A stretch of DNA of 64,000 nt from Marsupella aquatica (lineage: Eukaryota > Plantae > Marchantiophyta): NCBI GenBank assembly GCA_973895155.1, contig OZ316895.1, positions 14,636,716-14,700,715 on the forward strand, written 5' to 3'. Under the pieces are notes generated by a model. It ran no database searches. It worked only from the letters and a program-made list of their open reading frames with translations, and was not told the DNA's origin. Of this stretch, positions 6,801-64,000 are shown piece after piece (the first letter of the stretch is position 1; each line of letters begins with the position of its first letter). The position numbers were made by a program, and so were the translations under genes.

Positions 6801-6958
6801 ATGAGATAAATTTGAAATCCAGTCTAGAGTTTACATTCCTGACTTTATATAGTAGTGAATTCTTACCTTCACATATTTAAAGCTTCCCCATTATTTAATT
6901 TTCTGAGGCTCTAAAACCAGAGACCTGAGACTGAACGTAATTGCATAATTATAAAGAA

Positions 6959-7492
6959 ATGCGGGTGTGTAGCGAGACCTGCACATGTGGTCGGGGCAGA
7001 CTTCAGGAATTGTCAAAGCTTGCAGTACTCCTCATCACCACTCTCCCATTTGCTCTTCTCTTCATCGCCATTCCCGGTGTGGCTGGCGGCGACACAGACT
7101 TCAGACTAATGATCACAACAGAGCTAGCGGATGGTGTCGATGTGCTTTGTCATTCAGAAGATGGGGCATACCAAACGTCAAAGAGGAAGATCTTGCCTGA
7201 AGATACTGATTACACCGTTCCTTTAGATGAAACCCACCATGTCTACCGGTCTCGTTTCCTTTGTACAGTAATTGACAGTCTGGGTAACGAAATGACGTTC
7301 ACAGCTTGGGACACACGAATTTCTGAGAAGCGCTGGAAATTCCCAGAGATCGACGGTAAGCGAGATGTGAGATGGTCAGTGAACAATGGGGGAGTATGGG
7401 TGTATCTTAAAGGAAGAAACCACGCCAGTTCAATAATGAGGTGGATGTTTACAGGAATTTGGCCACACTTCCAAGTTAAAAATCCTTGGTAG
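6959..7492 (+). CDS. Secreted S-protein homolog (SPH / Self-incompatibility S1-like), single exon
   Basis: Hydrophobic signal segment (LAVLLITTLPFALLFIAIPGVAG), then the SPH pattern ITTEL..VLCHSED..RFLCTV..FTAW..VRWSVNNGGVW..W; ATG at 6959. Confidence 0.65.
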   Translation: MRVCSETCTCGRGRLQELSKLAVLLITTLPFALLFIAIPGVAGGDTDFRLMITTELADGVDVLCHSEDGAYQTSKRKILPEDTDYTVPLDETHHVYRSRFLCTVIDSLGNEMTFTAWDTRISEKRWKFPEIDGKRDVRWSVNNGGVWVYLKGRNHASSIMRWMFTGIWPHFQVKNPW

Positions 7493-10400
7493 TTGCTTGA
7501 TTGAACTCCAGATTCATTTTTATTCCTGTCCGATCTACACTTTGAAATTATAGTTGCACGGGACAATGAGATTTTATGGCAAATAGGTTAGGTGTAACAC
7601 TTGAAGATGGAGTATTGTCAATTTTCGACATTTGAAAAGTTTAAAATTTGTGATTGCCACTTTACTGGCGTTGCCAATAATGTATCTAAGGTATTTGAGT
7701 CTCTTTCTTCGCTTTGGATCATGATATTGATCTACCTTTCATAAATGCGGTATGTAATCACGTAACTGTGACTCTGACTGAATGGATGAAGATAGATACA
7801 ATTCGATCAATGTTAGAGAGCTTTAATTTGACCTAGCGATCGAACATTTTCGAAAGACGATAAATTCCTTACTCGTGCTGGATTTCTGAAGAAACCGCGA
7901 CAGCCGACGCAGAAACGCGAAACTCGATCAATGCCTATGAAGTATGAACGATAAGAACGATCATTAATTAAGTATTAACCGGTGATTGATGCTTTGAAAA
8001 TGGTGCGCCGGCTTTTCAACATCGCCAACTGTTCTTCTCCTCCTCCACAATCAGCTCTTAATCGTCTTCCCTAACGTTGCATTGAACGATCTTGCCAATG
8101 CCTGATGTCTTGCAGTTGACATCCCTACGGGAACACAGGGGAACAATTGCTTTTTTGGCCTGTCTTGCTACCATCAGTATATTTACAACTTCCAGTCGTC
8201 AATTCAAGCTTGGGCTAAATACCCAATGCTGTTGGGAAACACTCACTCCCGATCCTTCCATTCCAACGTTATACTTCTCCTGGGACCGATTTCTCCAAAT
8301 ACTTTCTTGCCCTGGTTCTTACTCCTCCCACAGAATTGTTTTTGAAGCAACAACAGCTTAATTAGTCTTCTTCCCCTTTCTCTTCCTGCACTTTACACTC
8401 AGTCCGCCTACATGTTCCATCCAATTTGGTTTCCGGACACAAGCCGTCTCCGCTCTTCGGAAATTTTTTGCAGCCATTGCTAGTGTGAACAAGACTGGAC
8501 GTATTAAACACCGATTGAATATGAAAACGATACTGACAGATATTCAAGTAACGTTCAAAGGGAGGTATGTGGATGCAAACTTGCATATTAATTAATGCTG
8601 GGCTAAAAGATTACCACAGAATTTGCATCCAGTACAATTCTGTAACTGGCTAATGCCTCAAGCTCTGGGACCGGGATTGATATCTCAAAAGTCCATGAAA
8701 AATAACTTTTATTATCCAACTAATGGGTAGAAACCTGATGAAGCTTGGGTGACGAGACAAGACGAAAATGTTGTCTCGAGGATTTTAGTCTGGATCGTCC
8801 CCGACGCAACATTTTCGTGGTGATTGACACAGGGAACTCAATGCACATAAAGCTTTCACTATAGCTGTGTTCGTAAATTTCATTCCCAAGTCTTTCCTAA
8901 GCATAACTTTGTTATTCCAGCAAACTGACTCAAATAAAAATCACATTAAAGAAAGAAGCAAATTAACGAACTTTGAGATGTTTACAAAATGTCTCTTCCC
9001 GAAACTACACTGCATGCATGACAAGCATCAATGCCACTTTGCTATAGACAATTGACAGATAATTGGTAAATCACTCCATGCAAGATGAGTATGTTACTTG
9101 GATCGATATATATGCAACTTTTGTTTTCTTCTTATTACTGACTTCGTTCAACTTTCCCGATCAACTGTCCCGTTATCGGGAAGTGAGGAGAAAATTAGAG
9201 ATTTGCCTGGCTGTTCCTGAACTGTCTACGATCAGATTTGCTCACGGAATCTGAATCCTAAAGATTTTCCCACATGAAGACATCGGGGTAGAGACAAGAG
9301 CTTTTATGCATGATCCAGGTATTTTGCAACGACGCTAAATTATGCTTTGGACCGATTATCTGAGTGCTTTATGCAAACGAGTCTACTTAAATAGGAAAGC
9401 GCAGAAATTGAAACTAGTTTCTAAGCCATTCCTCAGCTCTAACATCCACCCTCAGCATGCGTATAACTTGCCCGTCTTGTACCATCTAGAAATTGCACAA
9501 AATATTGAACATGTGTGCTCTCTTAGAAATTGTGTACAGGCTCTTGTTGAACGTCTGTCGAATTTGATTTGAAGAATTTGGCTTAATTGGTCCAAATGAG
9601 GGTCCAAATAATCCACAGCATGCATCAAATCGGATATCTTTGATCCGTTGCCTGGAAGAACAAAAGTCAAATTAATCGCGATCCTGCAGACACACGGGAT
9701 GCAAGGCCTACTGTATACACTTAAACATATATTACGCGAGATATCATTTTTTGCTGGGAAAACGGAGCTTTGTTCAATCCCGCCTTACTCACTGAGCCAT
9801 GGATGGCTACTGGGTACTCGCAATGTTAGCACTGCATGGTATCACTCAGATGAGATTTTGAACTGGTCCATATCTGATGGCGCTACATCTATACACTCGC
9901 GGAGCTCTGAAACGGGAGTTTGGAATGACTGTGTTCTGACAAGACGTAACGGGCTGTAGTCTGGCAAGCGCGAGAAGTAGAAAGTGGAAGAGATGAGACA
10001 TTGCGGCGGGAGAGCTTCCCTACCATTCTCGGGAATCGACATGGGAAGGCATGGATAGTCTCTAGTGCACACTACAGTAGATCGAGCATGTCAAGTTTCG
10101 GCTTGAACATGTCAAGTTCCGGCTTAGTTGTGTTTATGGGAGGGCCCGGAAGAACACTCTTAGGGGCTGGCCTATAAGATTAACAAATCAGAACCCCATA
10201 GCCCACCTGAAATCCAAGCAATTAGGCACAGGTTTTTGTTGTTGTTTTGTGAGTAGTAATTCTTTGAGATGACTCAAATTCTTACGACCTACCTTAGCTC
10301 ATTAAAAAGATAACTAAATTGGCTTTCTAAAGAGGTTTGGATCCATTCCAAGGAGAAGTGAGAAAGTTATGAGTCCCACAAGCCACAGGGGTCATGTGTT

Positions 10401-11871
10401 TAGTGTCTGATTTCAAGTGTCTGATTTCAGACTATGGCTTTTCTTTATGATTGCGGTGTTCCATTAATAAGCTACTTAGTTACAGGATACATTTTTTACC
10501 CATAGTGTTGATGATCATGCCCCAGCTTTCACACGCCCTATTGTTTCACACAGCTAATCTGGGTATCCAGTGGATAATCTGGGTATCCAGTCGATAACTT
10601 GACTTAGTAACCATCGGTTTACTTGCTGTGAGTTAGCTACTAAGAGTAGAGATACTTGCTGAGTTAGCTTTAGTAGAGAAAATCGACGCACTCATATTTA
10701 GTACCTTTTTCTATTTTGTAAGGTGTCTAAGAGAACAAATACTAAGCAGGACTGGGTAGATAAGCCAGATTTAAATCTCAGAAATTGACTCATTACTTCA
10801 AACATTCCTACCTTTGTGGTCAACTAAAGAAGCCGAAGATTTTCTTGCGAAACTTGCGAAAAGTCAAAAAGACAACTCAGCAATATCAGATTTTTTGGAA
10901 CTACTTATCTCCCTGTTTATCTGCTTAATTGTTTACTAGAAAATTTGTCTGGCCCAAAACAAAAGACACTCGATAGTTTTAAAACAGAAGTGATCGTGCA
11001 AGTCTCCGGGATTACTTACTAGTACTCTCTGTGCATACTTATATACTAAGTTGCATTGGAAAGAAAGTTTGAATGCAATGAGCTTTAACTATAACAGGCT
11101 GTACGTTTCATTCAGCTACGCAAGGCTCGCATTAGCAATGTCATGATGGCAGTTTCATGAAGACAAGATATTACAAGCAAATCAGCCTGGTTCGATCAAC
11201 TTCATGCTACAAAATGTTATTTATATGAATCGTTTCGAATATACAAAATGACATCCAACGATGACCCCAAAATTTGCGCAGAAATGCACACCAAGCTAGT
11301 GCCCTTCGATCGCGCAGGAGATCGCAATCATTGACCATTAGCGGTACAACCCTTACTGGTAACTATTCTGATTGCATCTTTGTCACTGAACCGAGAAGTA
11401 AAGCTAATACATCCACTAACTAGTACATTAATATGCACAAAATTACTATAATGTTGCCGAAGAAGAAATTAACGGCACAAATTGCTGTCTTGAAACAAAG
11501 ATCATTCTTGAATAATCCGTGATGCATTCTAGGTTACCTTCGGAATGAACCAATGTAATTTGACTGAGACATGTCAAGGCAAAAACAAATCCACCGAGGC
11601 ATAGAACGCGGTTACCCAGAATATCAGGGAAACATTCCTCCTATAGAAAATGCAATGGAGACTGACCAAGAGATCAATCTTCTCTCTATCAAGGCCCTAA
11701 AAGCCCAACCAGGGCGGACTATCAGTGTCATCTGGACTGTAATCGGCTTGATTCTGTCAGTCAGACAAGAAAAAAATTAATGCTATGCCTTCGGGAGATC
11801 AGATTCTCCCTCAGAGTCGTGATGAATGTCTGCTGGGCACTTTCCGTCTCCAGCTTCTCCCTCCTTCGAAT

Positions 11872-12909
11872 TCAGATGCTTGATGCATCCCGGGCGCTTT
11901 TGCCATCATCTGATTCTCCCTTAGACTCGAGGTCCACAACCACTGGATTCTTCCCATCACCAGTTTGTCGCTTAGACTCGACATCGACGCCCACTGGACT
12001 CTTCCCGTCCTCAGCTTGTGTCGTAGACTCGAGGTCAACGACAACTGGACTCTTCCCGTCACCAGCTTTTCCCTTACAGTCAGAATTGAGATCAACGACC
12101 AGTACTGGACTCTTTCCAACATCAGCTTCTCCCTCAAAATCCGGATCGGTGAGAACTGGACTCTTGCCGCCATCATCTCCATCAGAGCTGAGATCGATAA
12201 ACACTGGGTTCTTGATCTCATTATGTCCATCAGAGCCGAAATCAGTGGACACTGGGTTCTTGCCGTCCTCAGCTTCTCCCGGAGAGTAAGAATCTGTAAA
12301 CATAGGGCTGTTGCCGTCATCATCTCCATCATAGTCGAAATCGCGATCGGTAGACACTGGGCCCTTGCGGTCATCAGATTCTCCCCGAGAGTCAGGACCA
12401 GTAAATATGGGGCTGTACATATTGCCGTCATCAGGACCAGTAAACATGGGGCTGTACATGTTGCCGTCATCCGACTCTCCCGGAGAGTTTGAATCAGTAT
12501 GCATTAGCTTGTTTGCTTCATCAGAGTCTTCGTCTGAGTCCAAATCGATAAACACTGGGCTCTTGCGGTCATCATCTCCATCATAGTCGAAATCGGTAGA
12601 TCTTGGGCTCTTGCCGTCATCAGATTCTCCCGGAGAGTCAGGACCAGTAAACATGGGGCTGTGGCCGTCATCAAACTCTCCCGGAAAGTTTGAATTAGTA
12701 TGCATTAGATTGTTTGCTTCATCAAATTCTTCCTCTGAGTCCAAATCGATAAACACTGGGCTCTTCCGGTCATCCTCTCCATCAGAGGAGAGATCGATAA
12801 ACACTGGGCGCTTACTGTCATCATTCCCAACAGAGTCGAGCTTGATAAACCCTGCGCTCTTACCGCCGTCATCAGATTCCCCCTGAGAGGTTGGCGTCCT
12901 CGTCGGCAT
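11872..12909 (-). CDS. Acidic low-complexity repeat protein with ~7 SUMO-interacting-motif-like units (poly-SIM); probable frameshift near the 3' end
   Basis: 345-aa ORF with repeated SPVFIDL(D/S)S[DE]n and SPVVVDLES units; probable 5'UTR intron acceptor near 12938; paralog at 20428-21111. Confidence 0.6.
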   Translation of the reverse strand: MPTRTPTSQGESDDGGKSAGFIKLDSVGNDDSKRPVFIDLSSDGEDDRKSPVFIDLDSEEEFDEANNLMHTNSNFPGEFDDGHSPMFTGPDSPGESDDGKSPRSTDFDYDGDDDRKSPVFIDLDSDEDSDEANKLMHTDSNSPGESDDGNMYSPMFTGPDDGNMYSPIFTGPDSRGESDDRKGPVSTDRDFDYDGDDDGNSPMFTDSYSPGEAEDGKNPVSTDFGSDGHNEIKNPVFIDLSSDGDDGGKSPVLTDPDFEGEADVGKSPVLVVDLNSDCKGKAGDGKSPVVVDLESTTQAEDGKSPVGVDVESKRQTGDGKNPVVVDLESKGESDDGKSARDASSI

Positions 12910-13133
12910 CTCTCTTGGTCGTCTAGATATTATATTCCTGTCGCAACATCAAACATGCATTGTTAGTAATTGGCCGCTGGACACAGCCGGAATTGCCTCT
13001 TCTGTGGACAAATCATCCCCGGCTGTTCACGCTTTGTTCTCTCTCTAGACAAAGCGTGATGCCACCATGTTAAGTTTCTCGATACATCTATTTTTCGCAC
13101 ACACACACCGTTGAACAGACTGCAATATCTTCC

Positions 13134-16866: not shown

Positions 16867-17487
16867 CTGGGGGGCCTCACTCTAAAGGGGGTCTCGTATG
16901 GGGTCTCATAACATGCTCGACATTTTTAGCAATTAAACACCCTAAAAAATAAGAAGAAAAAAATTGAACTATTTCTCTGCAACTCTTGTTTGGCCCCAAA
17001 TGAAATACTCCCAAATTTCATTTCTAAAATCATATCGATCCTTCTCTTATAATTCTCAAAATTGGATTTTAGAAACCCTAGCTAATGTTCTTTTACATAA
17101 ATTTAAAAGTATTCTTTTCAACCCAATAAACAAACCATATACTTACTTGCGCATGATCTCGGGGGTTTCACTTCCACAAAAATGGCATATCACGTGCGAC
17201 GAAGGATAGGGTCATTTTATTGGTTTTAAGGGAAGACTTAAGAATTTTTGTAGAAGAACAATAGGGTCTTTTAAATTCAATTTTGAGACTTATAAGAACA
17301 TTAGGGTCTTTTTAATCCAATTTTTAGAATATTCCAAGAATATTCCAACTTTATAGGGGTTAAAAATAATTTTCTTACATTTTAGGGGGTCCGAGGCCTA
17401 AAAACATCGCAGGCGATGGGGAGGTCCCCATATAGTGAGACCCCCGAGCGCATGATGGGTAAAAAGTAAATAAGTGAGGACCCTGAG
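16867..17487. mobile_element. MITE (outer), 8-bp TSD AAGTTATC, containing a nested MITE
   Basis: TIRs ctggggggcctcact / agtgaggaccctgag; aagttatc at 16859-16866 and 17488-17495. Confidence 0.85.
17158..17448. mobile_element. MITE (291 bp), 8-bp TSD CGCATGAT
   Basis: TIRs ctcgggggtttcact / agtgagacccccgag; perfect TSD; near-identical to 18461-18749. Confidence 0.92.
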
Positions 17488-18460: not shown

Positions 18461-18749
18461 CTCGGGGGTTTTACTTCCACAAAAATGGCATATCACATGC
18501 GACGAAGGATAGGGTCATTTTATTGGTTCTAAGGAAAGACTTAAGAATTTTTGTAGAAGAACAATAGGATCTTTTAAATTCAATTTTGAGACTTATAAGA
18601 ACATTAGGGTCTTTTTAATCCAATTTTTAGAATATTCCAATAATATTCCAACTTTATAGGAGTTAAAAAAAATTCTTACATTTTAGGGGGTCCGAAGCCT
18701 AAAAACATCGCAGGCGATGGGGAGGTCCCCATATAGTGAGACCCCCGAG
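18461..18749. mobile_element. MITE (289 bp), 8-bp TSD ACAAGGTA
   Basis: TIRs ctcgggggttttact / agtgagacccccgag; acaaggta at 18453-18460 and 18750-18757. Confidence 0.92.
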
Positions 18750-20427: not shown

Positions 20428-21111
20428 TCAGTCAGACAAGTAAATAATATGTGGTAGGGGCTTCGGGACCTCAGGTTCTCCATCAGAGTTGACGTACAGA
20501 ATGCCTTCTGAGCCATTATCGTCATCAGATTTTCTCTGAGAGCCGGACTCGCTAGACGTTGGGCTGATGCAGTCTCCAGAATCTCCCTCAGATCGAGAGT
20601 CTGGGCCATTATCGTCATCAGATTTTCTCTGAGAGTCGGACTCGGTAGACGTTGGGCTGATGCAGTCTCCAGATTCTCCCGAACCCACATTACTACTTCT
20701 TGGCGCTTCTGACGGCTCAACAATACAGCCAGCTTTTGTCGCATCAAACTTGAGCTCAATCCATCCTCGTCTTGGTCTCGGTTTATTTCTTCTATACATC
20801 TGTGTCCTACCAAAATATCGACGATATCGACATTCCCTCGATGTTATTGCTTCAAGAAGGACAGAAAACATTTCCGTACATGCCCCACTCTGATGGTTAG
20901 GTTTAGTACTAGTACTCTCAGCGTCACTGACAGCAGCCCCCACCTGATATTCCCCACTCTCGCCCCCACTCTGGTTAGTGCTTCCAGCATCACTGACAGT
21001 ATTCATTGCAACATTCATCACCAGTGATTGAACATGTGCCCCGCTCGGATCGTTAGACCCGAAGGTTTGAGCGTCACTATCAGCAGCCGCCACATGTGTC
21101 CTCTTCGGCAT
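20428..21111 (-). CDS. Paralog of the acidic repeat protein (diverged middle, basic stretch, ISPT(S)xES repeats)
   Basis: 227-aa ORF; start context (MPKRT vs MPTRT), C-terminal region and flanks are homologous to 11872-12909. Confidence 0.5.
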   Translation of the reverse strand: MPKRTHVAAADSDAQTFGSNDPSGAHVQSLVMNVAMNTVSDAGSTNQSGGESGEYQVGAAVSDAESTSTKPNHQSGACTEMFSVLLEAITSRECRYRRYFGRTQMYRRNKPRPRRGWIELKFDATKAGCIVEPSEAPRSSNVGSGESGDCISPTSTESDSQRKSDDDNGPDSRSEGDSGDCISPTSSESGSQRKSDDDNGSEGILYVNSDGEPEVPKPLPHIIYLSD

Positions 21112-24100
21112 GCATCTCTACTGGCCTTCGATGTGTTGGTCTATCCTTGTTGCAACAACGAAACGTGCATCGTTAGTAATTGGGACAGCCGAAATTATTT
21201 TCTCTCTGGACAATCATCGGGCGACCAGGTCAAATTCTCTAGACAGCCATTTGCGCACACAGACGCCGGCCGTAGACCATTACGCAGTGTCTTCTGACCG
21301 CTCACTTACTCAGAAGCAGTTTATTTCCAACAAAACTATGTGAGAGATATGAACGATCGATGATACGGAATACATACTCAATCAAACTTTCGATAAAGCC
21401 TCATTAGAGCTGCGTGATAAAAAACTAACGAACAGATCAAAAAGTAAGAGACCAACGTGAGTATCTATCTCTCGAGAAGCAAGCCGGGGACTACACTTTC
21501 GATAAAACGATAAAACAGAGTGGGCTAGAAAACTGACGAAACTTGTCAAACAGTACGAAACCACTGAAGGTGAGTGTACATGCATATCTCGACAAGCAAA
21601 CGGCGAGGAGACTCCCTGTAGCGACTCACCAGAACGGTCCAAAATACTGACGAAACAGTACGAATTCAATCTTCGAAACTAGTGTTAGTGATAGATATCC
21701 TCTAGTTCAGTACTTCTCTTGCGTTTCGGGTACAATACATAAAGAAGACTTCTGATGAAACCTTATCAGAGCGACATAAAAAATCAGCAACCAAACAAAT
21801 TCCGAAACCACTTTGAGAACCCTTCTCTTACAGACAAGGTATGATCGAAGGCTAGGGTCAAAACGTAAGAGTTCGACCAATGCTAGTATCCTGCCGATCG
21901 TGCGAACAAGATTATGAAGGCACAGTAGCTAGCTGCCGGTGCTTTACACACATGTTGTAGTGGTTAGAATTCATGGAAAAGTATACTTACATCCTGAAAA
22001 CTTCGTGTTCGATCAATATCTGGACCTTTTGCTTCTTCAGACTGACTCTACGAATTTTTCTCCGACTCTCGACACCTCAACAGATCACAAGAAGAGAGAC
22101 GGCACCCAGAGAATAGACTGAAGCTCGGAACAGATCTCAAAGAGCTAGAGGGAAGAACGGAGATCGAGAACAACTGAAGGCAAGACAGTCACTCCTGTGA
22201 ACAGCTAGACCATGAGAGCGGAGCGGCGCGCGGGGGCGAGACTGAAATTCATAGTGAGTGTGCTTCGAGAGCGCTACTGTATCCTGAGATAGTTCCTATC
22301 CTACCTTCCGTCATTCCAATTTATTACACCCGGACTTGTAGCAGAAAATTACGGACTTTAGATGAGTATACAATAAACATGAATTGTTTTTTTTTTTTTT
22401 TTTTAAAACCCGAAGCCCGACCAGAAGTGGCCTACTAGTGATCATGATGGCTCTATGTGGCTGGGTTAGGGTTCAGGTGAAGAGCTCGTGCAATCCTTGT
22501 CTCCAGACCCATGTGACCTTCTCTTATCAAGTGTAGAATGCACACCCATGTTACCTTCCTCTTATCAAATGTAAAATGTCTGTACTTTAAAATGGTACTC
22601 TTAGACAGCTACAAGCCTGGACTATGGACAAAGCCTTGCCATTTGCGGCCCAGCTTAGCCTACGCGCCTCCGGCCCCAACTTAGCTTGAGTTTCCTGTAT
22701 TTAAGACCAATCTTAATCCTGGTCGGCTGGTCCCTAATGAATCATCCTGTCAAGTACGCAGCACCCAATGTGATTTGTACTCCTGGCATCTTACCGGAGG
22801 AACATGGCTTCGAGTCGAGGTCGTTATTAAGGGCTCATGTAGCCTCATCTGATTTTATCGCTATCATCCCTTGTCCCGCGACCCTAACTTCGATCCCTAC
22901 CTAGAGATGACTGGAATGGATGCTTTCTTTGTTTAAGGACCGTCTCCTGGATAAGGGTCAAAGCTGCACAAAAGATTAAATTTGCTCCCTATACGTCTGA
23001 TAAGAAATAAATCCAATACGCTTTGACGTCGTTACAATATTGTATGAAAAATTACTTTTGACTTTCGAATAAAAGAGTGTCACGTGGACTCAGTCATCAT
23101 TTCGTTGAATGGGATGTGCCTATCGTGTAGGGGTAGTGTATCCGAGTCACATCAAGAGCATTTGAAGAAATTACTCGCCGGTATATATGGAGTTCATCTG
23201 AATCGAGGTCATTTTGTTTAATTAGTTAGATACCGTCATTGCTCGGAACTCAACAGTTAACCCGTTGGCCATGTGAACTCATTCAGAGATCTAGATACTC
23301 ATCTGACTGGCGAATGAACGATCATGAAAATCCAAGGCCATTTCAGGAGTTTGTTTAGGTTTTATTTCATGTCTCTTGAATTTTGAATGGCTTTCCGGAT
23401 AAATGAATGGTTTCACAAGAACTAGTAATGTACACTCAAAGGCTTGATTTCCCGGGCACTAGCTTGGTGCCGGCCTGATCTAATCTCGATCCATGTATGT
23501 ATATTGAAATTAATTCAGTCATAATGTAATGGGCCTCAACAAACCGCTTCCTTCAATCAAACCTAGGTGATCTCAGTATTCGTTTCATTAAATGGTACAA
23601 TCAGATCAAAGAGATTGAATTTTGACGACTACTAATCTCCATCTTTGAAATGAAATTAATCCACAGTTTATTCATTCCACTTTTTTGAATCAACCCGCTC
23701 CGATCTACAACCAGAATAAAATGCTACAATTAATCACAGCAAACGGAACTCATGTAAGAAATTGAGCATGCTCTGTGTATCTACAGTAGCTGTCGATGCT
23801 GAATTCATTTGCATTCTTAGAAGGAAATTGAGACCAAACTAACTGATCTTCTGTGCTACTTCAATCCCTCGCACAACTTCGAGAGACATTGCCATATGGA
23901 TGCAGCCCTCCACGATCGAGTAGGGAAAATACAGTGGGAAATCACCTTTACACTTTCCGCTCTCTCTAAGCGCCCATATTAAGCGCAAAATTTCGTTTGT
24001 CAGGTATCCTGTTATTTCTTTTTATTTTACACAATATTGAATTGCAGAATTTGCATTTCCTCTATGTGCAAAATGGACTGGAATTATTCCACAAAATGAC

Positions 24101-25592: not shown

Positions 25593-25868
25593 CTTGGGGG
25601 TCTCACTATATGAGGGCCTCCCCATCAACTAAATCAAGATTGCAAGAAAAAAAAAATCAACCCCTATAAAGTTGGAATATTCTTGGAATCTTCCAACTTA
25701 TTGATTAAAAATACTCTAATGTAACTTTTATAAGTTTCAACATTTAATTTAAATACCATATTGTTCTTGTGAGAAAATTCTTAAGTTTTCTATTAGAACC
25801 AATAAAACTATCCTAGATTTTGTCGCATGTGATGTGTCATTGTTGTAGATTAAAATGAAACCCCTTAG
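25593..25868. mobile_element. Degenerate MITE, same family, reverse orientation
   Basis: cttgggggtctcactatatg ... tgaaaccccttag; flanks agtaatgg / attaatgg (1 mismatch). Confidence 0.75.
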
Positions 25869-29039: not shown

Positions 29040-29758
29040 ATGCAGCATCCTCGGGGAGTCACAGTTCGTAGGCCATGTAAACACTCGAGTGGCAGAAAGC
29101 CTGTCCCACCGCAGGCAACTAAAGCACCTCAGAAATGGCCGACATTTCAAGTCGTTGCTCCTCCTCCTTGGATACCGGAAGGGTGGACAGCAGTCGTTCG
29201 AACGGGAGAAAGCGGAGGAAAACACAAGGTAACTGGTCGACACGCACGTTGTTCGCCTCTTGAGATCCGTTGCACGGTGGTCGACGTCGTGGACATTGCC
29301 CCTCATTGATTTTAACACAACCTGCTCACCGAGGTAGGAACTCAATCATGATGTCTCATCGGTCGAGTCAAGGGAGAATTCTGAATAATCATGCTCAGTT
29401 TTCAGTGTATACGTCTCACGTACGTTCTTATTTTATTGAATCGAGATTGTCACTGACTTTCATTCGTCGACTTATTGAAACGCAGTATTACGTGGATCCG
29501 GTGTCCAAACGCCGTTATTGGTCGAAGACGGAAGTCACTTGGTTTCTAAAACTTGGACACCGCTACAGATATAAGCGGGCGTTTGATGCGCCCAAGCGAG
29601 CGCCCATTGGCAAGAGAGAGACTCATAAAGAGCAGCTGCAGAAGCTTGGTAGGGAGTTCTGCCTAGAAGCTGTCGAAGCCTTACGTAACGAGAACGTGGG
29701 AAGCAACACTCTGCAACAGATAAATATGGGGCTGCGTTCCTGCTCGCTCAAGAGCTGA
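29040..29758 (+). CDS. Divergent methyl-CpG-binding-domain (MBD) protein; exons 29040-29228 and 29486-29758
   Basis: Spliced product PPWIPEGWTAVVRTGESGGKHK|YYVDPVSKRRYWSKTEVTWFL fits the plant MBD pattern (PxGW..YYxDP..RxxSKxEV); phase-0 GT-AG intron. Confidence 0.75.
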
Positions 29759-32666: not shown

Positions 32667-33497
32667 TCAACGCCGTTGATTTATTCTCCATGAGGTTTCA
32701 GGCGTCCCAAGTTTCGAGGAAGCGTATCTGGCAGCTGTGAACAAATAATCACTCAAACGATTCAAGTACCGAACTACTGATTCATCCACCACCTGCTCTT
32801 CGACGAGAGTGGTCATTTTCCTTTCTGCACGCCGACAGATGGATCTCGCCACATGCAAAGATGAAGCAGGCAAACCACCAGACGGAAGGATGAAGCCCGT
32901 CTGGTGAGGCACCTCCTCGTCCATCTTAGCCCTCCAACTCTCGAGCACTTCAACTGTTGCCACATTGAATTTCACCCTCGGAACCTTCTTTGAAGAATTT
33001 GAAAATGGGTTGCTCAGAGGAACAGCAACAGCTGACCCAATGTCCAGCAGTCTCGACTGAATCTCCTCAATCTGCTGCAAAGTCGATGTCAGCTGAGCTT
33101 GAGAGCAATATGCATGTGCTAACCCTAATGTACTGCTCAGCTCATCGACAGCTCCCAGAGCTTCAAAGGTCGAACTTGATGACGACACTGAAGAATCTGG
33201 AGAAAAGAATCGAGTCCCAGGTGGGATACCCTTCACGGAGAGAGACTGGGTCGTCGTAAGAAGCCCTTGCTTTCCATACCGTGGTGTTCGAATTGCATCC
33301 CAGCGCAAAAGATGTTCCTCCAGTGGGCTTCTCGGCACGATGAGAGCATTGTGTGAGGAGGTTGTTCCATTCGATCTACTGGAAAGCAGCCTCTGATGCA
33401 ACTGAGGAGGAAGGGAATCCAGCCACGAGACTGCAACACGGCACTTCAGGGTCTCCCTGTGGATCGATCGCAGACAGTTCTGCATCGAAGTGGCCAT
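32667..33497 (-). CDS. MMAB: PduO/MMAB-type ATP:cob(I)alamin adenosyltransferase-like protein with probable organellar transit peptide, intronless
   Basis: FEALGAVDELSSTLG, IQSRLLDIG, FILPSGG, LHVARSICRRAER and YLNRLSDYLFTAAR are PduO-family motifs. Confidence 0.9.
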   Translation of the reverse strand: MATSMQNCLRSIHRETLKCRVAVSWLDSLPPQLHQRLLSSRSNGTTSSHNALIVPRSPLEEHLLRWDAIRTPRYGKQGLLTTTQSLSVKGIPPGTRFFSPDSSVSSSSSTFEALGAVDELSSTLGLAHAYCSQAQLTSTLQQIEEIQSRLLDIGSAVAVPLSNPFSNSSKKVPRVKFNVATVEVLESWRAKMDEEVPHQTGFILPSGGLPASSLHVARSICRRAERKMTTLVEEQVVDESVVRYLNRLSDYLFTAARYASSKLGTPETSWRINQRR

Positions 33498-33820
33498 GAT
33501 TGGAGACTACGCATCGACAGGTCTACCACAATCCATTGCTCTGCGTACTTGGGCACAACCTCTACAAAACTCTTCTGTACAAAAGTAAGACGTCCTCAAT
33601 ATTTTGATCAAATCTGATGGCAATGTCGCTGGTGATGAATGTCTGGCAACAAGGGTCTCAAATCTCAAACCTTGAGGTACTATTGCTACATACTCCATAC
33701 GCCCTTAAAGCAAGTTTTGTTAGTGTAACTGGGTGTTATCCAAACCCACGAAAGAAAATCTAAAAAGTATGGTCCAACTCACTCACTCCAAAGGCCATCT
33801 TGCATGTGAGAGGTCCTTAA

Positions 33821-55032: not shown

Positions 55033-55561
55033 GACATGGGAGCAATTGAGTGGCACAAAAGTTGTCAACTTTCAATTGGGCTCGGATTGGTCCAGGAGCT
55101 TCAAGACAAGGAAGCTCCATTCTTCCCGAGGCAACACTAATTGTTGAGCCATTCAGACTATATTACACTGAACAGAAGCCAATTTCCAAAAACATGACTT
55201 GACATCTTGACTACTTTCTCCACAGGGTTGCCGAGTGCAATCTGTGAATGGTTCCTTCTTCTTTTTGGTGTAAAAGCAGCCATCACTTTACACAGTCCAG
55301 GATGGGCAAGGATAACATCTCCATCCATCTGGATTGATGTGGTGGATTTGTAGTCAATATATGAAAAGTGTGATATATTTGTAAATACAACAACCCAATT
55401 GTAATTGGAATATCCTTAGTGACAAAGTAATTAAAAGGTGATTGTACTTATTAATACTTGTCATCATAAGGTGTTGTAGTGGCATTGTCATGCCGAGGGA
55501 CAGTGCCGCTTGTGCACATGCACTTATTAATACTTGTCATCATAAGGTGTTGTAGTGGCAT

Positions 55562-55920
55562 TGTCATGCCGAGGGACAGTGCCGCTTGTGCACATCGGCA
55601 TGTCCCTCGCATGCCTGCTAGGTATGTAGTTAGGGCTAGTGTACTACTTGAGTTAGTGTCATGTTCTTGTAGCAAGTTTGGGCCGTTCTTGAAGCAAAAC
55701 GTGCTTGTTAGTGTGACGCCTTGACTTGATCTACTTAGGGCATGTCTTTCTTTGTCGGTTTTCAGTTCTTCTTGAATCGCTGTTGACAGAGCTCAGACAG
55801 TGCTCGTCGGTTCCGTACACGGGATTCACACAGTGATTCGTTAGATGCTCCCGGCTGATCTTGGCATCCTGCCGGTTTTCGATTCAATTTCAGTACGATT
55901 GTTTCTCTTACGCCTTTTAT
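55562..55920 (+). repeat. Terminal repeat segment A1 (359 bp; starts TGTCATG, ends CGCCTTTTAT)
   Basis: Direct alignment with A2. Confidence 0.92.
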
Positions 55921-55933
55921 TCAAGAAGAACTG
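55919..55933 (+). promoter_or_regulatory. Putative self-priming primer-binding site
   Basis: attcaagaagaactg is the exact reverse complement of cagttcttcttgaat (55763-55777), which overlaps an Inr-like TCAGTT in A1. Confidence 0.75.
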
Positions 55934-57231: not shown

Positions 57232-58269
57232 ATGTCAGCAGACGAGCCAGGAGGTAGCAACACATCACCGCCGACATCCAGGTACCGTTTACGGAGTGAT
57301 CCACGACTATTGGTGCCAATTTCATTGGAGTCTCAGCAATTTCGACGACGTCCGTAGACAGCAGCAGCACCCACACCACGCAATCCTTCTGCTCAATTTG
57401 GCGGTCGCTTCACCACTACTCCAAAGCCTGCTATCACTTCATTGCCATTTACCCCTTCTGCATCCGTGGTTGTTCCTGCTTCACCGACATACAGCATGGA
57501 CGCCAGCCACTCATCTGGCCGCATTGAACGCTTCAGTGGGCGGCCAGACATTGTTTCTTTGCGTGAGTTCAAATCCACTTTCTACACTGTCATTTATGAA
57601 TTGGAGTTGAAGTATGGCAGCAATTTCACAAATGCCTTTGCATTTAAACAGCTAGCCAGGTATGTGCACCACGAGGTTTTAGATGTGTATGAGCAGCACT
57701 CTCAACGGCTGCTTGCCGTCACACAATTGCCTAACCCTGCCTATGCCATTGCAATTGCGGCTGCCTCACAACTGGCATTACAGAATGCCATTGCAGCCCA
57801 TGCTGCTGCTCCTGCCACTTCCCTTTCTACTCCAGTTCCCACCATTGCACCAGTTACTCCCACTATCTTGGCACACGCTACATCAGGCATTTCTCCCACC
57901 ATTGATTCCCCTGCCTTTGCTGATCCAGTGGCTGAGTCTTTCCAGGTTCTTGAATTGGAATTCCCAATCAAGAGTGCTGACAAAATCATGCAGTTGGCCA
58001 CCTTTGTGAGGCAGCGCGATGAAACATTGAAGATGATGTATCGCCGGCTTCTCCAGCTGAAGGAGGACACCTAGAGCATCATTGACTTGGAAGCTGCTCA
58101 TTGCTATCTTCGCTCATTGGAGGGCACACTAGCTCTCCATTCGCAAGTGTTGCAGCAAGTATTCTCAGAGTTTGGAGATAGCTACACCCTGCTCAATGTC
58201 TATGACACTGCTGAGAAACTTGAGTTGGCCCATGCACATTATGAGGCCAGTATTGCGCGTCCACCGCGA
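57232..58269 (+). pseudogene. gag: gag-like ORF of copy 1, with in-frame TAG at 57355 and 58072, truncated by insertion
   Basis: ORF pieces 57160-57357, 57442-58074 and 58087-58284 share one frame; IERFSG..LREF.. and RQRDETLKMMYRRL resemble retrotransposon capsid motifs. Confidence 0.7.
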
Positions 58270-58445
58270 TGTCGTGACATATAGTATCGTAGCCATAGTG
58301 TATCGAAAACATACAAGTCACCGGCAAGGCATATGTGCAAGCTGCTAGCAACCAACATGCATAGAAAAAGTCCAATCACATTCACAAGTGCCAAGAAAAA
58401 GCAAATGAAGTGGTATGTACGTAGTGGAGGTGTAAACCTCTGTAT
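58270..58445 (-). repeat. Terminal repeat segment B2 (176 bp; ends ..CACGACA)
   Basis: Direct repeat of 58807-58982 with 3 transitions. Confidence 0.95.
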
Positions 58446-58804
58446 ATAAAAGGCGTAAGAGAAACAATTGTACTGAAATCGAATCAAAAACCGGCGGGAT
58501 GCCAGGATCGGCCAGGAGCATCTAACGAATCACTGTGTGAATCCCGTGTACGGAACCGACGAACACTGTCTGAGCTCTATCAATAGCGATTCAAGAAGAA
58601 CTGAAAAACCCACAAACAAAGACATGCCCTAAGTAAACAAAGTCCTGGCGTCACACTAACAAGCGCATTTGCTTCAAGAACGCCTGGCATTTGCTATAAG
58701 AACATGTCACTAACTCAAGTCGTACACTAGCCCTAACTACATACTTAGCGGGCATGCGAGGGACATGCCGATGTGCATAAGAGGCACTGTCCCTCGGCAT
58801 GACA
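58446..58804 (-). repeat. Terminal repeat segment A2 (359 bp; starts TGTCATG on the minus strand)
   Basis: Inverted copy of 55562-55920. Confidence 0.92.
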
Positions 58805-58806
58805 AC

Positions 58807-58982
58807 TGTCGTGATATATAGTATCGTAGCCATAGTGTATCGAAAACATACAAGTCACCGGCAAGGCATATGTGCAAGCTGCTAGCAACCAACATGCATA
58901 GAAAAAGTCCAATCACATTCACAAGTGCCAAGAAAAAGCAAGTGAAGTGGTATGTACATAGTGGAGGTGTAAACCTCTGTAT
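58807..58982 (-). repeat. Terminal repeat segment B1 (176 bp), immediately after the PPT
   Basis: Direct repeat of 58270-58445. Confidence 0.95.
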
Positions 58983-59000
58983 CCCCCCCAGACCCTCGCC
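58983..59000 (-). promoter_or_regulatory. Polypurine-tract-like sequence (..GGCGAGGGTCTGGGGGGG)
   Basis: G-rich tract between the pol stop (59034) and B1. Confidence 0.75.
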
Positions 59001-59048
59001 CAGACCACAGCCAAAAGGAGGGCTGAAGAAAATTCAGGTAGCACGTGG

Positions 59049-59195
59049 AGCACATGAAGGGCAAAACCATAACCCTTCTGGCACCTGGGTAAGTTCAAGC
59101 CGAAGGCAGAAAAGATGGTACCCTCCATTGCAATTGTCACACAGCAGCATCTGGTCAGCATCATCAATTCGCAAACACACTTTGCAAGGGTAGTC
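59049..59195 (-). other. PHD finger at the integrase C-terminus
   Basis: DYPCKVCLRIDDADQMLLCDNCNGGYHLFCLRLELTQVPEGLWFCPSC (C4HC3 plus conserved W). Confidence 0.93.
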
Positions 59196-62100
59196 CACAC
59201 GTGGAATCCAGGTAGAAGTCACAATGGTGGGATCCAGGTTAGGCAGATGACAAGGGGCGCAATTCTTGGCATTGTCAGCAATTGTGCGCCCATCTGCCCC
59301 TTGTAACTCTAGCACTCCAGACGGTCGAATAGCTTTAACCCTGAGAATTGTACGACTGGTAGAGGTGTCTAGGGTGTCGTTAGCTTGCCGCTGCAAGTAC
59401 ACAAAATCTCCCACATCAAACTTCCTGACCTTGGGCTGAAAAGTGCCCCCTCGTGTGTGTGCATAACGCAGTGTGTCCCTATGCTGTGCAATGGCCAAAT
59501 TCTCCATGGCCATGGGCATAACCCTCCTGAATGGGGCAGCCCTCTCAGAGATCACATCAGACCAAGTCACAGCTGAATCCAAGTCTACCACCTGAACCAT
59601 GTGAGCAGCAATAGCAGAAGGTGGAACTGGGTGACGACCAAACAACAAGAAGTAGGGAGAAAAGTTAGACAATGATGCATGTCTAGACATCCTATACCCC
59701 ATGGCAATGTAGGGTAAGGCCAGGTCCCAATCCTCCTTGTTTTTGGTGAGGCAAATCTTCCGGAGACCCTTCTTGCATGTCTGAACCATGCGCTCTGCCA
59801 AGCCATCTGCCTGTGGGTGATCTCGTGACGTTCGGCGATGATCAATGAGGGCTTGATCAAGCAGCTCCTGGAACTCTCCTCTGAACTTTGATCCCTGGTC
59901 AGTGAGACATTCTGCACAAGCTCCAAAGCGGCTGTGAACTTGTTGCAGGAATGCCTGGCTCGTGCTACGAGAGGTCTTATCCGGCAATGCCACAAGTTCT
60001 ATCCACTTGGAGAAATGCTCTATCATGATCATGATGTAGAGATTATCCTGAGACGTGAGGGGTAATTCTCTAGCCAAATCACATGACCAGCGATAAAACA
60101 TGCCCTGAATAGGGAGTGGATGAAGTGTGGGTTGCCGAGATGTGAAAGAAGTCCTCACCCTATCACATTGTTCACACCGAGCAATAACATCTTGAACCTG
60201 GCCATGCATGCCTCTCCAATGATAATGAGGGACCAAGAGGCTGTAAGTCCTCTTAACGCCAAAATGACCAAGCTCATAATGTACCTTACGGATAAGGCCA
60301 ACCCTCTCATGAATGGGTGGAACCACCACTTCCCTGTCTGGCAAGCAGCGCATGAGATGATCTCCCTTCCACAAGTAACGCTTGGACCTTTGCTGAATTC
60401 GGTCTCTCTGGGTTGCAGTAACATGTATGGGGTACTCCCCATGCTGCAAAAATCTCATAGTGTCGCTGTCCTCCCATATGTCCACCACAGGTTGGTCAAC
60501 GATATAGCATGGCAGCAAAGCAAGATAGGTAAATGCATGAAATGTAGGCAGGATGGAAACCTGGTCAAAATCCTGCCGTGCATCTGAGGGATCATCAGAG
60601 GCAATCAAAGGGCTGCGGGACATAGTGTCAACATTTTGATGTGTCACACCAGGCCTATGAATTACCTCAAAATCATACTCCTAGAGTATGAGTGCCCAAC
60701 GAGCAAGCTTGCTAGTAAGCTTGTCGTTGGTCATCAACCACTTCAAGGGCTGGTGGTCGGTGTAGAGAACAAACCTGGTCCCATAGAGGTAGGGCCTGTA
60801 ATGTATTACAGCCCACACAACAGCAAGGCATTCACCCTCATAAGAAGAATAATGACTCTCTGTCTGATTGTTGCTCCTGGATGCATAGGCAATGACGTAC
60901 TCTTTACCTTCCTCATCATGCTGGCCTAGAATGGCACCAATCCCAAGGGCACTCCAATCTGTGTGTAGCACAAAGACCTTGCTGAAATCAGGTCTTCTCA
61001 GCACCGGGTATTCTGAGAACTTCTCCTTCAAAGTGGCAAATGCTGCCTTAGCATCTGTACTCCATGTCCAAGTCACATTATTTTTCAACAAAGAGTGCAA
61101 TGGATGTGCAATGGTACTGAAATCTTTGATGTAGATCCGGTATTAATTGCACAGCCCAATAAAACTCCTCAAAGTGTGAACATCGGTAGGAGTGGGCATT
61201 TCCAAGATGGATACCACCTTGGCCCAGTGAGCCATGGTTCCATTTGGAAGAATGCGATGCCCAAGATATACTACTGATCTGACAGCAAATTCACACTTCT
61301 TGGGGTGTATCTTTAGGTTCACCTTCTTAAGCCTCATGAATAGCTCCTCAAGGTCAAGTAGATGTTGGTCAAATCCTTTGCTGTGGACCAACACATCATC
61401 AATGTAGCATTTCAGAAACTCAGCACCTTGAAGAACCTGGTCCATGACTCTTTGAAAGAATATGGGCGCATTCTTCAAGCCAAATGGCATCACCAACCAC
61501 TCCCATAGTTGGTTACTACCATGGAAAGCTATTTTCTTGCGGTCCTTTGCAAACAGCAAAATCTGGTTAAAGCCTTGCCTTAGATCCACAAGAGTGAAGA
61601 TGTCTGAGTCTCCAATGCTGTCAAATAGCTCCTCTGGCCGTGGCATGGGGTACCTGTCCTGGGGTGTGACCAGGTTCAGTGGCCTGTAGTCCCCACACAT
61701 GCGCTTCTCTGTCCACAATCCACTGGAATCCTTCTTTGCTGGCATCACTGTAGCTGCTGCAAAATCTGATGTAGATGGCTGAATAAGACTAGCTTCATAG
61801 AGCTCTTGGCATCTCTCATCCACCAACTGCCACTCATGCTTACTCAAACGGTGTCTCCGCCTGAAGATAGGTGTTTCATCAGCCAAATCAATGGAGAACT
61901 GCATAGTCTTGCACTTACCCAAGTCCTTCATAGAGAAAGCAAACACATTCTCATGCTTGAGGAGCAAATTCAGCAGCTGGTCCTTCTGTCTTTTACTCAG
62001 GTGGTTGCCCATGATGAATGTGTAGTTGGCAACACTAGGAATAGGACCTGATGTACTCGTGCTTGAAGAGCCAGAAGTGCCAGCCTCTCCACTGTCCAAG

Positions 62101-62364
62101 CTGCTAGCATGCTGCTGATAAGATGATGAGGCCTCTCCAAGGCCTGCTATATCTGTTGCTCTGGTCTGATCCACACCATGAAACTCAGAAATAATGTCAG
62201 CCACATTACAAGGGACCTCCTCCCCCCCAACACTTGGACTGAAGTGGTGAGTGTTGGACAGAGGTAAATGCACCTGGTCTGGATGCCATGTAGCAGCACC
62301 ATGGAGTGGTAGGGCTAGAACTCCTGATGCTGGATGAATGTACATCTGAAAAAGGATGCAAGTG

Positions 62365-63305
62365 ACCAGAAGCCAAGTGAGAGCATTAAGATCCATTACC
62401 CTATCAAGTAAAGCATTCCTGGCCAGCCTGGTGATTTTGGTGTGACTGTAGTACCGGGTTGGAAGCCCATAGCCCGTTCTCTCTCCTCAGGACTAGGTTC
62501 ATCCCATGTACCGGTGGAATGTCGATAAACCAGGCCAGGACCATCACCCTGAAAAGCATGTGCACCTAGAAAGGACACAAATGTAGGCCAAGCAACACGG
62601 GGCTGTCCAATGGTATTAGCTGGATACCAAGGTGCTGGCTCTTGCCGTGTAACCGGTTGGCAAGAACTGTCAGGATCCAAAATCTGGTCCACTATGAGGT
62701 TAGTGACCCTGGATGTGTGGTGAAGAGCTAACTCCAACAAGGAAGGTGGTGCAAGGTTAGTCCAAAAGTTACGAAGACGATGTGCATAAGAACCATAGTG
62801 CACTGCATCAATGAGAAGGGGTGGTCCCAAGTAGTGCTGGACCACACTGAAATCCTCTTTGACCTGTGGACGCTGGTCAAACTGAGATGGAGTATTCTCA
62901 ATGATATAACCAACAGCAAGATAAAGGGATTGAGCCCAGATGAGAATCAAAACCAATGCTGTGAAAAGGCCAGAACGAGAATCATGCAGTCCAGCACCGT
63001 GACCAGCAGCTGAAAACCCTTGGCATTCCCAACCAGCAATGATCAAATCAAGGGAGCCAAGAAGGGTTAAGTGCCGGTGCTGGACAAGCTGGATATCTGG
63101 AGGAAAGAAAGAAAATGCAGACTTCCATGCACTGTGTGGAAACTGCTGAGGAAATCGCTCTGAAAATTCCAGTAGACGGGATTCAGCCACTTGCCTTGCA
63201 CCTGGATCAATATCCACATAGATGTACTGCTTCACCACCATGCCAGACTATAGGAGAGCTTCCAGGCCTGTAGAAATACCACCAAAAAGCTCAAGCAATG
63301 TAAGG
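62365..63305 (-). other. C5 cytosine DNA methyltransferase domain (DNMT3/DRM-like) within pol
   Basis: Motif I LLELFGGISTG, II YVDID, IV DLIIAGWECQGFS, VI IIENT, VIII HRLRNFWTNL, IX EERERAMGF, X RNALLDRVMDLNALTWLL (after the frameshift). Confidence 0.9.
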
Positions 63306-64000
63306 CCATCCGGAGCAGGAGTCCATGTAACTGGTACGCTCAAGATTGGGGCTATTGGCTGTCCATTGTGCTGCCCAAGGTCTTCAAACTTGCGCAATGC
63401 AGCCACCAAAGGTCCATGGGCTGCTTGGAGTCGTTGTACCACCTCTGGTTGATGATCCACATTGCTGGAAAGTGCTGCTATATGTGCAGCGGCATGTGCA
63501 ACAGCCACCTCATCATCATCCTCCTCAATCCAATCCTGCAATGGGTGATTGACATAGGTAGCTGTGTGCACTACTTTCAACACACAGTGGTGAGCCATAG
63601 GTGTATGGGCACCATGCAAATCAAGTGGAATGTAGCCCAAGTGTGAGCCATCCGTATGCCAATCAACTCTGTAGTATGCATGCTCATGCCAGTTGTCAAT
63701 GGTAAAACCTGGTGGGAACAAAGCCTCCTGGCCAATGAGCACATCATACGTAGTGGCATTGGTAACCAAACATTTGACTGGGAAATGCAGTTCCTGATCT
63801 ATACCTCCATTAAAAGTGAGAGTGAGTAAAGTAGAACTCTCACCCAACACGTCCTCCACGGTGCCACTAGCAGTCCGAATGTGCCACCTGGATTGCTGTA
63901 AATGATGAGTCAGCAGTCCCATCTTCTTGGCAAACTGAATGCCCAAGATTACTGGTTGAGCGCCTGTGTCTAGCATGACCACCTGAGGAGTGTGACCCTC

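Follow-up and report, generated by a model that had tools for sequence, protein, structure and literature searches.

The window, that is, the whole 64-kb stretch of Marsupella aquatica DNA analysed here, carries a Ty3/gypsy retrotransposon, here as a dead copy, with a DNMT3-like cytosine methyltransferase (DNMT) within its Pol. In the reading that we favour, with moderate confidence, this enzyme likely methylates the new cDNA of the element itself, with CG as the probable target, and integration likely proceeds from a circle that is cut inside the LTR. Elements of this kind are already known in print, from algae only; what is new here is the bryophyte and chlorophyte range, the anatomy of the ends and a testable route of replication.

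The minus strand at 59034-64000 is a single gypsy pol in which Pfam profiles identify protease, DNMT, reverse transcriptase (RT), RNase H, integrase and a PHD finger, with the RT-RNase H-integrase order of Ty3/gypsy (Table 1); upstream of the protease, the element extends past the end of the window. The preliminary description of this DNA correctly placed the methyltransferase between protease and RT (PF13975 upstream, RT downstream) and correctly reported canonical motifs in the pol frame, apart from one TAG and one frameshift, all of which are now mapped, but it missed two further in-frame stops, the PHD finger and the end repeats. The window copy is dead because of these two stops, after RT and after RNase H. 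The best PDB matches of the PHD finger are WSTF, CHD4, KDM5, ATXR5 and BAZ2B. A Pfam search of the window pol at E 0.1 yielded no chromodomain, and there are no tRNA genes within the 64-kb window.

Table 1. Features of the retrotransposon and of the opposite-orientation sister element that it interrupts
Feature	Position	Strand	Evidence
pol aspartic protease, DTGA motif	63719..63994	-	PF13975, E 1.5e-6
DNMT3-like C5-cytosine methyltransferase, motifs I-X in canonical order	62365..63307	-	motif order, PF00145, PDB, model
DNMT motif I, LELFGGISTG	63266..63295	-	protease frame
TAG stop inside DNMT	63248..63250	-	
DNMT motif IV, LDLIIAGWECQGFS	63011..63052	-	protease frame
DNMT motif VI, YIIENTP	62888..62908	-	protease frame
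DNMT motif VIII, HRLRNFWTNL	62753..62782	-	protease frame
DNMT motif IX, EERERAMGF	62462..62488	-	protease frame
One-base frameshift inside DNMT	~62445	-	
DNMT motif X	62367..62444	-	RT frame
Ty3/gypsy reverse transcriptase, YIDD	61251..61850	-	PF00078, E 9.6e-28; PDB Ty3 Gag-Pol, E 2e-39
In-frame stop after RT	61143..61145	-	
RNase H	60684..61064	-	PF17917, E 4e-37
In-frame stop after RNase H	60681..60683	-	
DDE integrase, H2C2 zinc finger and rve core	59814..60317	-	PF17921, PF00665
C-terminal PHD finger	59052..59186	-	PF00628, E 2.5e-11
pol stop codon	59034..59036	-	
G7 polypurine tract, directly ahead of B1	58983..58989	-	sequence
Repeat B1, 176 nt, ends CACGACA	58807..58982	-	98% to B2
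Two-base spacer, internal att-like junction CA-GT-TG (B1/A2)	58805..58806	-	sequence
Repeat A2, ~360 nt, starts TGTCATG	58446..58804	-	90.6% to sister-element A
Repeat B2, element 3' end CACGACA, within sister gag	58270..58445	-	repeats; loose ends at 58270
Sister-element gag with stops, interrupted by the inserted element	57232..58269	+	tblastn matches of ~40-76% in the region ahead of pol at related loci
Sister-element primer-binding-site position	55919..55933	+	complementary to 55763-55777 over 15 nt without mismatch
Repeat A1, forming the 5' end of an opposite-orientation sister element from the same family	55562..55918	+	predicted self-primer 55763-55777

Judging from profile and modelled structure, the window domain is a DNMT3-type C5 methyltransferase: PF00145 matches above the cut-off (26.8 bits against 22, E 4.4e-6, with X substituted at the stop), and DNMT3 is the nearest solved fold. 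The best 16 matches in a PDB sequence search are all DNMT3A or DNMT3C (top E 9.4e-5). An AlphaFold model (pLDDT 82, pTM 0.76) has DNMT3A/B as its closest structures in Foldseek (E 2e-12) and in VIA (Z 17.6, rmsd 4.7, 237 aligned), where the best bacterial enzyme is M.HhaI (Z 13.8). The DNMT3-like identity proposed in the preliminary description is thus upheld by sequence and fold searches, and the profile search that it suggested was significant. In the window copy the domain is intronless, unrearranged and within the Pol frame, its breaks being specific to this copy. A DRM identity was ruled out because the motifs show no rearrangement.

Among the 218 homologues that cover at least 230 residues of the domain, the catalytic Cys is present without exception (218), the Glu of motif VI in 216, one motif VIII Arg in 213 and the other in 207; the SAM-binding Gly of motif I is near invariant. 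The residue ahead of the catalytic Cys is Glu in 127/218 and Pro in 78/218, and the motif IV Pro is replaced, by Glu or another residue, in 140/218. In this alignment, the substitution of Glu for Pro appears as a trait of the lineage; its origin by decay was ruled out by the 127 homologues that share it. The preliminary description had already noted, from the window alone, the retained Cys with its preceding Glu, the motif VI Glu and the motif VIII RxR.

Pairwise comparisons (NG86) of the window copy with 67 of the 80 related loci (L068-L080, at 26-33% identity, were excluded from all counts) gave median dN/dS values of 0.125 (DNMT; dS finite in 52 of 67 loci), 0.09 (protease; 23 of 47), 0.05 (RT; 17 of 54), 0.08 (RNase H; 29 of 45) and 0.07 (integrase; 24 of 39). 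The dS values approach saturation, and since every pair includes the window copy, the pairs are non-independent. Even with these two limitations, the values exclude neutrality and indicate that purifying selection acts on the DNMT domain. Neither of the refuting outcomes that the preliminary description had named for the family, absence of the domain from other members or neutral evolution across them, was observed. RT, DNMT and integrase occur together in 82 long open polyproteins. The TAG and the frameshift are specific to the window copy: in 4/4 runs covering 62350-63350, almost the entire depth departs from the window sequence at the TAG, and every run has contigs that differ from it at the frameshift. 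In run X3, contigs at a depth of ~1000-1200 are ~98% alike to the window over the DNMT domain, next to single contigs at a depth of about 15-20; although depth is no copy number, these abundant near-identical contigs hint at many young copies of the family. In two loci (L063 and L065), repeat B directly follows a truncated DNMT, so that these loci are internally deleted derivatives.

Relatives of the element are found in other bryophytes, namely the liverwort Calypogeia fissa (58% over 226 residues that span the linker and the domain) and the mosses Sphagnum jensenii (61%) and S. compactum (53-61%), in all three cases on contigs of more than 13 Mb. The named algal relatives of the domain are Closterium and Klebsormidium, and there are chlorophyte relatives in Tetradesmus deserticola and Hariotina reticulata. 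Two architectures can be distinguished among the 366 domain proteins. The DNMT lies ahead of RT in 25, including those of the window, Closterium and Klebsormidium nitens (GAQ93235), and between RNase H and integrase in 143, including the two chlorophytes; the remaining 198 are too short for the position to be assigned. One branch separates the two architectures both in the DNMT tree (support 99; FastTree, 206 rows, 61 of them unlabelled) and in a quick tree of RT-RNase H (SH-aLRT 97, 32 rows). The topology of these trees, built without a host DNMT3 outgroup, suggests a likely single capture of the DNMT, followed by a move within Pol. In the FastTree phylogeny, likewise without that outgroup, the window and Klebsormidium domains, which share the position after the protease, fall on the same side of the 99-support branch, and the window element very probably belongs to the Klebsormidium-type Gypsy-Dnmt3 lineage.

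The link to Klebsormidium that the preliminary description had drawn is accordingly sustained by domain order and split repeats, and its extension of the range to land plants also stands; one gene in the window, the ORF at 32670-33506, has Riccia fluitans as its nearest named match, which places the host among land plants and likely among liverworts. The occurrence in bryophytes and chlorophytes widens the known range of the Gypsy-Dnmt3 kind, and so wide a spread over green plants points to an early capture, not to a peculiarity of Klebsormidium. We found no report of such elements from land plants or chlorophytes in the literature, although the figures of PMC5890265, bioRxiv supplements, Repbase and subscription journals may hold one. 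The texts available of PMC11244446, PMC9033089, the Chlamydomonas v6 preprint and a chromatin-evolution preprint contain no land-plant report; PMC12344493 and bioRxiv 10.64898/2026.05.21.726589, in the portions accessible, mention streptophyte elements with reference to PMC5890265.

Several proteins in this set have unusual features. P0032, labelled as a DNA cytosine methyltransferase from a bacterial MAG, is a 44% identical homologue that groups with the retrotransposon domains and is likely mis-binned plant or algal DNA, to judge from its placement. P0194 and P0195 are polyproteins with an additional G-patch (PF01585). P0206 and P0208 are polyproteins of 3489 and 4100 aa with RT, PF12237 (PCIF1_WW) and a related DNMT, without an rve integrase; P0206 additionally contains RNase H and PHD. 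Both form a long branch inside the before-RT side of the DNMT tree and, by their domain content, could possibly be DIRS-like elements with two methyltransferases.

The ends of the family are built from split direct repeats. The window shows B-A-B at the 3' end, and the full A-coding-B-A-B layout is present in 7 related loci. Among the 38 loci with an A or B match, the 3' end is B-A-B in 13 and a lone B in 10, and B was found in front of the 5' A repeat in 0/23; within these counts, L006/L010, L018/L020 and L038/L039 look like the same insertions. In 10 loci inspected for it, mostly of the other architecture, no second B repeat was found. Family members start with TGTCATG and end with CACGACA, and the B/A junction reads CA-NN-TG; the exact junction pattern matched only 2/80 loci because most copies have decayed. 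A 4-bp target duplication flanks 10 of the 11 two-ended elements (5 exact, 5 with one mismatch) and is also seen in the 4 elements of the form A-body-B. The flank of the window insertion reads TCGC, compared with the NCGN insertion preference given for Phygy, a moss non-chromovirus, in the text of PMC6317226; NCGN occurs in 0/11 target duplications of the related loci, some of which are possibly decayed forms. A1 is immediately followed by 14-15 nt that are complementary to a stretch within A1, with at most 2 mismatches in 18/22 loci against 0/330 control windows. The self-primer sequences of the window and of L004 differ, yet both still pair over 15 nt; the primer helix is present in the predicted fold, the overall fold z being only -1.8. 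In the other architecture, the palindrome CGACA-GC-TGTC occurs 3' of pol in 3/8 loci against 0.09 expected, and both architectures have the CG of the CGACA end.

Two observations concern the surroundings of the insertions. At the 5' end of the sister element, two 76-nt tandem copies (55443-55594, 99% alike) cover the first 35 nt of repeat A and its flank. Family members are nested or adjacent, as in the window, at L003:106-4177 and 6765-10886 and in the 3' flanks of L006 and L010, and the family may preferentially target its own copies.

Primer site and G-tract together delimit an LTR that consists of B plus A and carries no TG/CA at its outer ends; at the A2|B2 seam, the primer-site end of A is joined exactly to the polypurine-tract end of B. 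A two-base spacer between CA and TG is a requirement for processed ends in retroviral and IS3-type DDE integrases. Because of the A-body-B-A-B layout, the Tf1-like self-priming site, the CA-NN-TG junction and the 4-bp duplications, we consider it rather likely, from the arrangement of the repeats, that the integrase cuts circular cDNA inside the LTR. The transcript would begin inside A1, and its first 14-15 nt would prime reverse transcription, as in Tf1; plus-strand synthesis would begin at the G-tract and yield linear B-A-body-B-A DNA with ends devoid of TG/CA. These ends would be joined, or a one-LTR circle would form, and the integrase would then cut the internal B|A junction and insert the product. 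Cutting a two-LTR circle at the B|A beside the primer site would give A-body-B-A-B, and cutting a one-LTR circle, or later B-B recombination, would give A-body-B. In the particle, the DNMT, freed by the protease, would methylate the cDNA, which would arrive host-like or dampened, and the PHD finger would tether the integrase to chromatin.

The methyltransferase is quite probably active in intact copies, given the conservation of its motifs. That cDNA is its main substrate is a proposition that we regard as evenly poised; by analogy, action on cDNA is favoured because the DNMT would be packaged with RT, its position in Pol is free and the Symbiodinium counterpart methylates CG. That retrotransposon Dnmt3 methylates CG de novo in yeast, and the Klebsormidium domain showed no methylation activity there, a result that its authors call inconclusive (PMC5890265, as given in the text). 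The CpG observed/expected ratio is 0.27 in the window pol, compared with 0.71 over the first 55 kb; it is 0.30-0.54 in 7/8 open-frame loci and 0.23-0.44 elsewhere in the window (16-20 kb and 44-46 kb). The depletion in pol fits methylation of cDNA, and host methylation explains it too. The 11 classifiable recent C-to-T differences among those listed are in CHG (6) and CHH (5) contexts, with none in CG, which points to host enzymes that would have acted on the window copy. With 11 sites from the differences listed, the mutation context was dropped as a read-out of the element's own enzyme.

Other explanations of the domain can be weighed against action on cDNA. The stop and the frameshift inside the window copy would be expected if the domain were a fragment of a host gene, acquired by one copy and decaying neutrally, a scenario to which we assign hardly any probability: the domain has no introns, is in frame, occurs throughout the family and also in algae, and has a dN/dS of 0.125, and the breaks are copy-specific. 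(A one-off transduced fragment was ruled out by the presence of the domain across the family and algae.) The PHD fingers of WSTF, KDM5 and BAZ2 and the ADD domain of animal DNMT3 are readers of unmethylated H3K4. The resemblance of the element's PHD finger to the first three is one reason to ask whether the DNMT stays with the integrase and acts at the integration site, the PHD finger reading histone H3 and the new insertion and its flanks becoming methylated. PHD and DNMT do travel together (DNMT, integrase and PHD are all present in 69 of the 82 long polyproteins, in one architecture alone), and 143 proteins have the DNMT placed between RNase H and integrase. In the window architecture, however, RT and RNase H separate the two enzymes, and the free movement of the DNMT within Pol fits a released protein, so that we consider this reading unlikely. 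Less probable still is that the domain is kept for binding nucleic acid or flipping cytosine, for example at the att CpG or in RNA, with little methyl transfer to DNA. The replaced motif IV Pro in 140/218 homologues, the inactivity of the Klebsormidium domain in yeast (in the text of PMC5890265) and the CG of the CGACA end common to both architectures can be cited for it, but the near invariance of the motif I Gly, the catalytic Cys, the Glu and both Arg argues against it.

The circle route faces a difficulty of its own: a symmetric two-LTR circle predicts A-B-A-body-B, seen in 0/23, and the route therefore needs an unexplained asymmetry. This absence is accounted for if there is no circle and A-body-B-A-B arises by a linear route that restores the ends from the internal B|A, as proposed for PAT and Ngaro, with A-body-B derived by B-B recombination, which would leave in place the target duplication that all 4 elements of the A-body-B form show. 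Yet the primer site after A1 and the polypurine tract before B1 define a B-A LTR joined exactly at A2|B2, and an end-to-end join would still be required; we hold the linear route to be possible, albeit doubtful. Taking the circle route further, one may tentatively picture a gypsy lineage as old as green plants that combines a DNMT3 writer with a PHD reader, in which the writer moved within Pol, self-priming and circle integration are the rule and methylation of the CGACA end possibly chooses the junction that is cut; we put this broader picture forward as conjecture.

The closest known system, KnitGypsy-Dnmt3, combines DIRS-like repeats with gypsy domains and has been described in Klebsormidium only (de Mendoza et al. 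2018, PMC5890265, main text). Like the window element, it has an unrearranged, intronless Dnmt3-like domain in a gypsy Pol under purifying selection, and, according to the legend of Fig. 4c, it pairs gypsy domains with a DIRS-like arrangement of repeats, as does the window family; K. nitens GAQ93235, too, has the protease followed by the DNMT. The window element differs in its land-plant host, with 32-37% identity, in the Glu ahead of the Cys, which is Pro in the Klebsormidium protein P0120, and in its PHD finger, a term absent from the KnitGypsy text of PMC5890265 and possibly present in a figure. Nor does that text mention, for KnitGypsy-Dnmt3, the self-priming, att junction or target duplication of the window family. 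SymbioDIRS-Dnmt3 of Symbiodinium shares with the family a Dnmt3-like domain in Pol and A-coding-B-A-B repeats but has a tyrosine recombinase according to the text of PMC5890265, whereas the window family has a DDE integrase, TG...CA ends and 4-bp duplications.

DIRS, PAT and Ngaro elements have split direct repeats in common with the window family, and in them a tyrosine recombinase replaces the DDE integrase and there is no target duplication; a DIRS element was ruled out here by the rve integrase and the 4-bp duplications in 10/11. Chromoviruses of the Tf1/Sushi and Tcn1 groups are, like the window family, gypsy elements of non-seed-plant hosts that self-prime without a tRNA primer, whereas the window element has a PHD finger without a Pfam chromodomain, an extra DNMT and split repeats; the text of PMC6317226 lists self-priming for Tcn1 and does not contain the words 'methylase' and 'PHD'. 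The EpiLTRs of Cymbomonas and Euglena are likewise LTR elements with a cytosine methyltransferase and a chromatin reader, but these are a DNMT4-related domain, along with DAM, and a chromodomain, and their authors regard them as distinct from 'streptophyte Gypsy-DNMT3' (bioRxiv 10.64898/2026.05.21.726589, accessible text). Gypsy-7a_cRei of Chlamydomonas is another gypsy element of the green lineage whose polyprotein contains a PHD finger; it differs in having two near-complete LTRs and no DNMT listed in the text available (bioRxiv 10.1101/2022.06.16.496473). The DDE integrase of foamy virus cuts a palindromic CA/TG junction in the two-LTR circle, as proposed here, but does so at the end-to-end seam, so that normal LTRs are restored (PMC1180852, in part); in the window family, the att is internal to the LTR and yields a permuted product. 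We found no report of this circle route for a retrotransposon in the literature, within the same limits (supplements, Repbase and subscription journals).

Why a retrotransposon retains an enzyme that hosts use to silence it is a question so far studied in algae that are hard to manipulate; it is testable in bryophytes because the family is probably high-copy with near-identical copies and methylation mutants exist. If the reading of the ends is true, they are a case of a DDE integrase that routinely uses a circular substrate, which is thought to be rare in retroviruses. Such elements would escape LTR finders built to look for two equal TG...CA repeats, and their fragments may be annotated wrongly as host or bacterial methylases.

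Elsewhere in the window, the minus strand encodes an intronless corrinoid (cobalamin) adenosyltransferase (MMAB) at 32667-33506, the ORF mentioned above in connection with Riccia fluitans, which is its best named match (64%, 207 bits; Klebsormidium, 165 bits); there are few land plants among the 120 matches listed. The plus-strand ORF at 6941-7492, with a hydrophobic leader and four Cys, has no Pfam match at E 0.01; we take it to resemble plant S1/SPH proteins. Also without a Pfam match at E 0.01 is the plus-strand ORF at 29264-29758, whose YYVDP...RYWS stretch is presumably MBD-like. Two acidic, repetitive minus-strand ORFs (11872-12948 and 20428-21117) consist of related 48-51-nt units (SPVFIDL-like) and have no Pfam match. 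Finally, repeats of ~290 nt at 17158-17448 and 18461-18749, 1.3 kb apart, with an inverted copy at 25641-25849, lie in CpG- and CHG-poor DNA and are probably another transposon.
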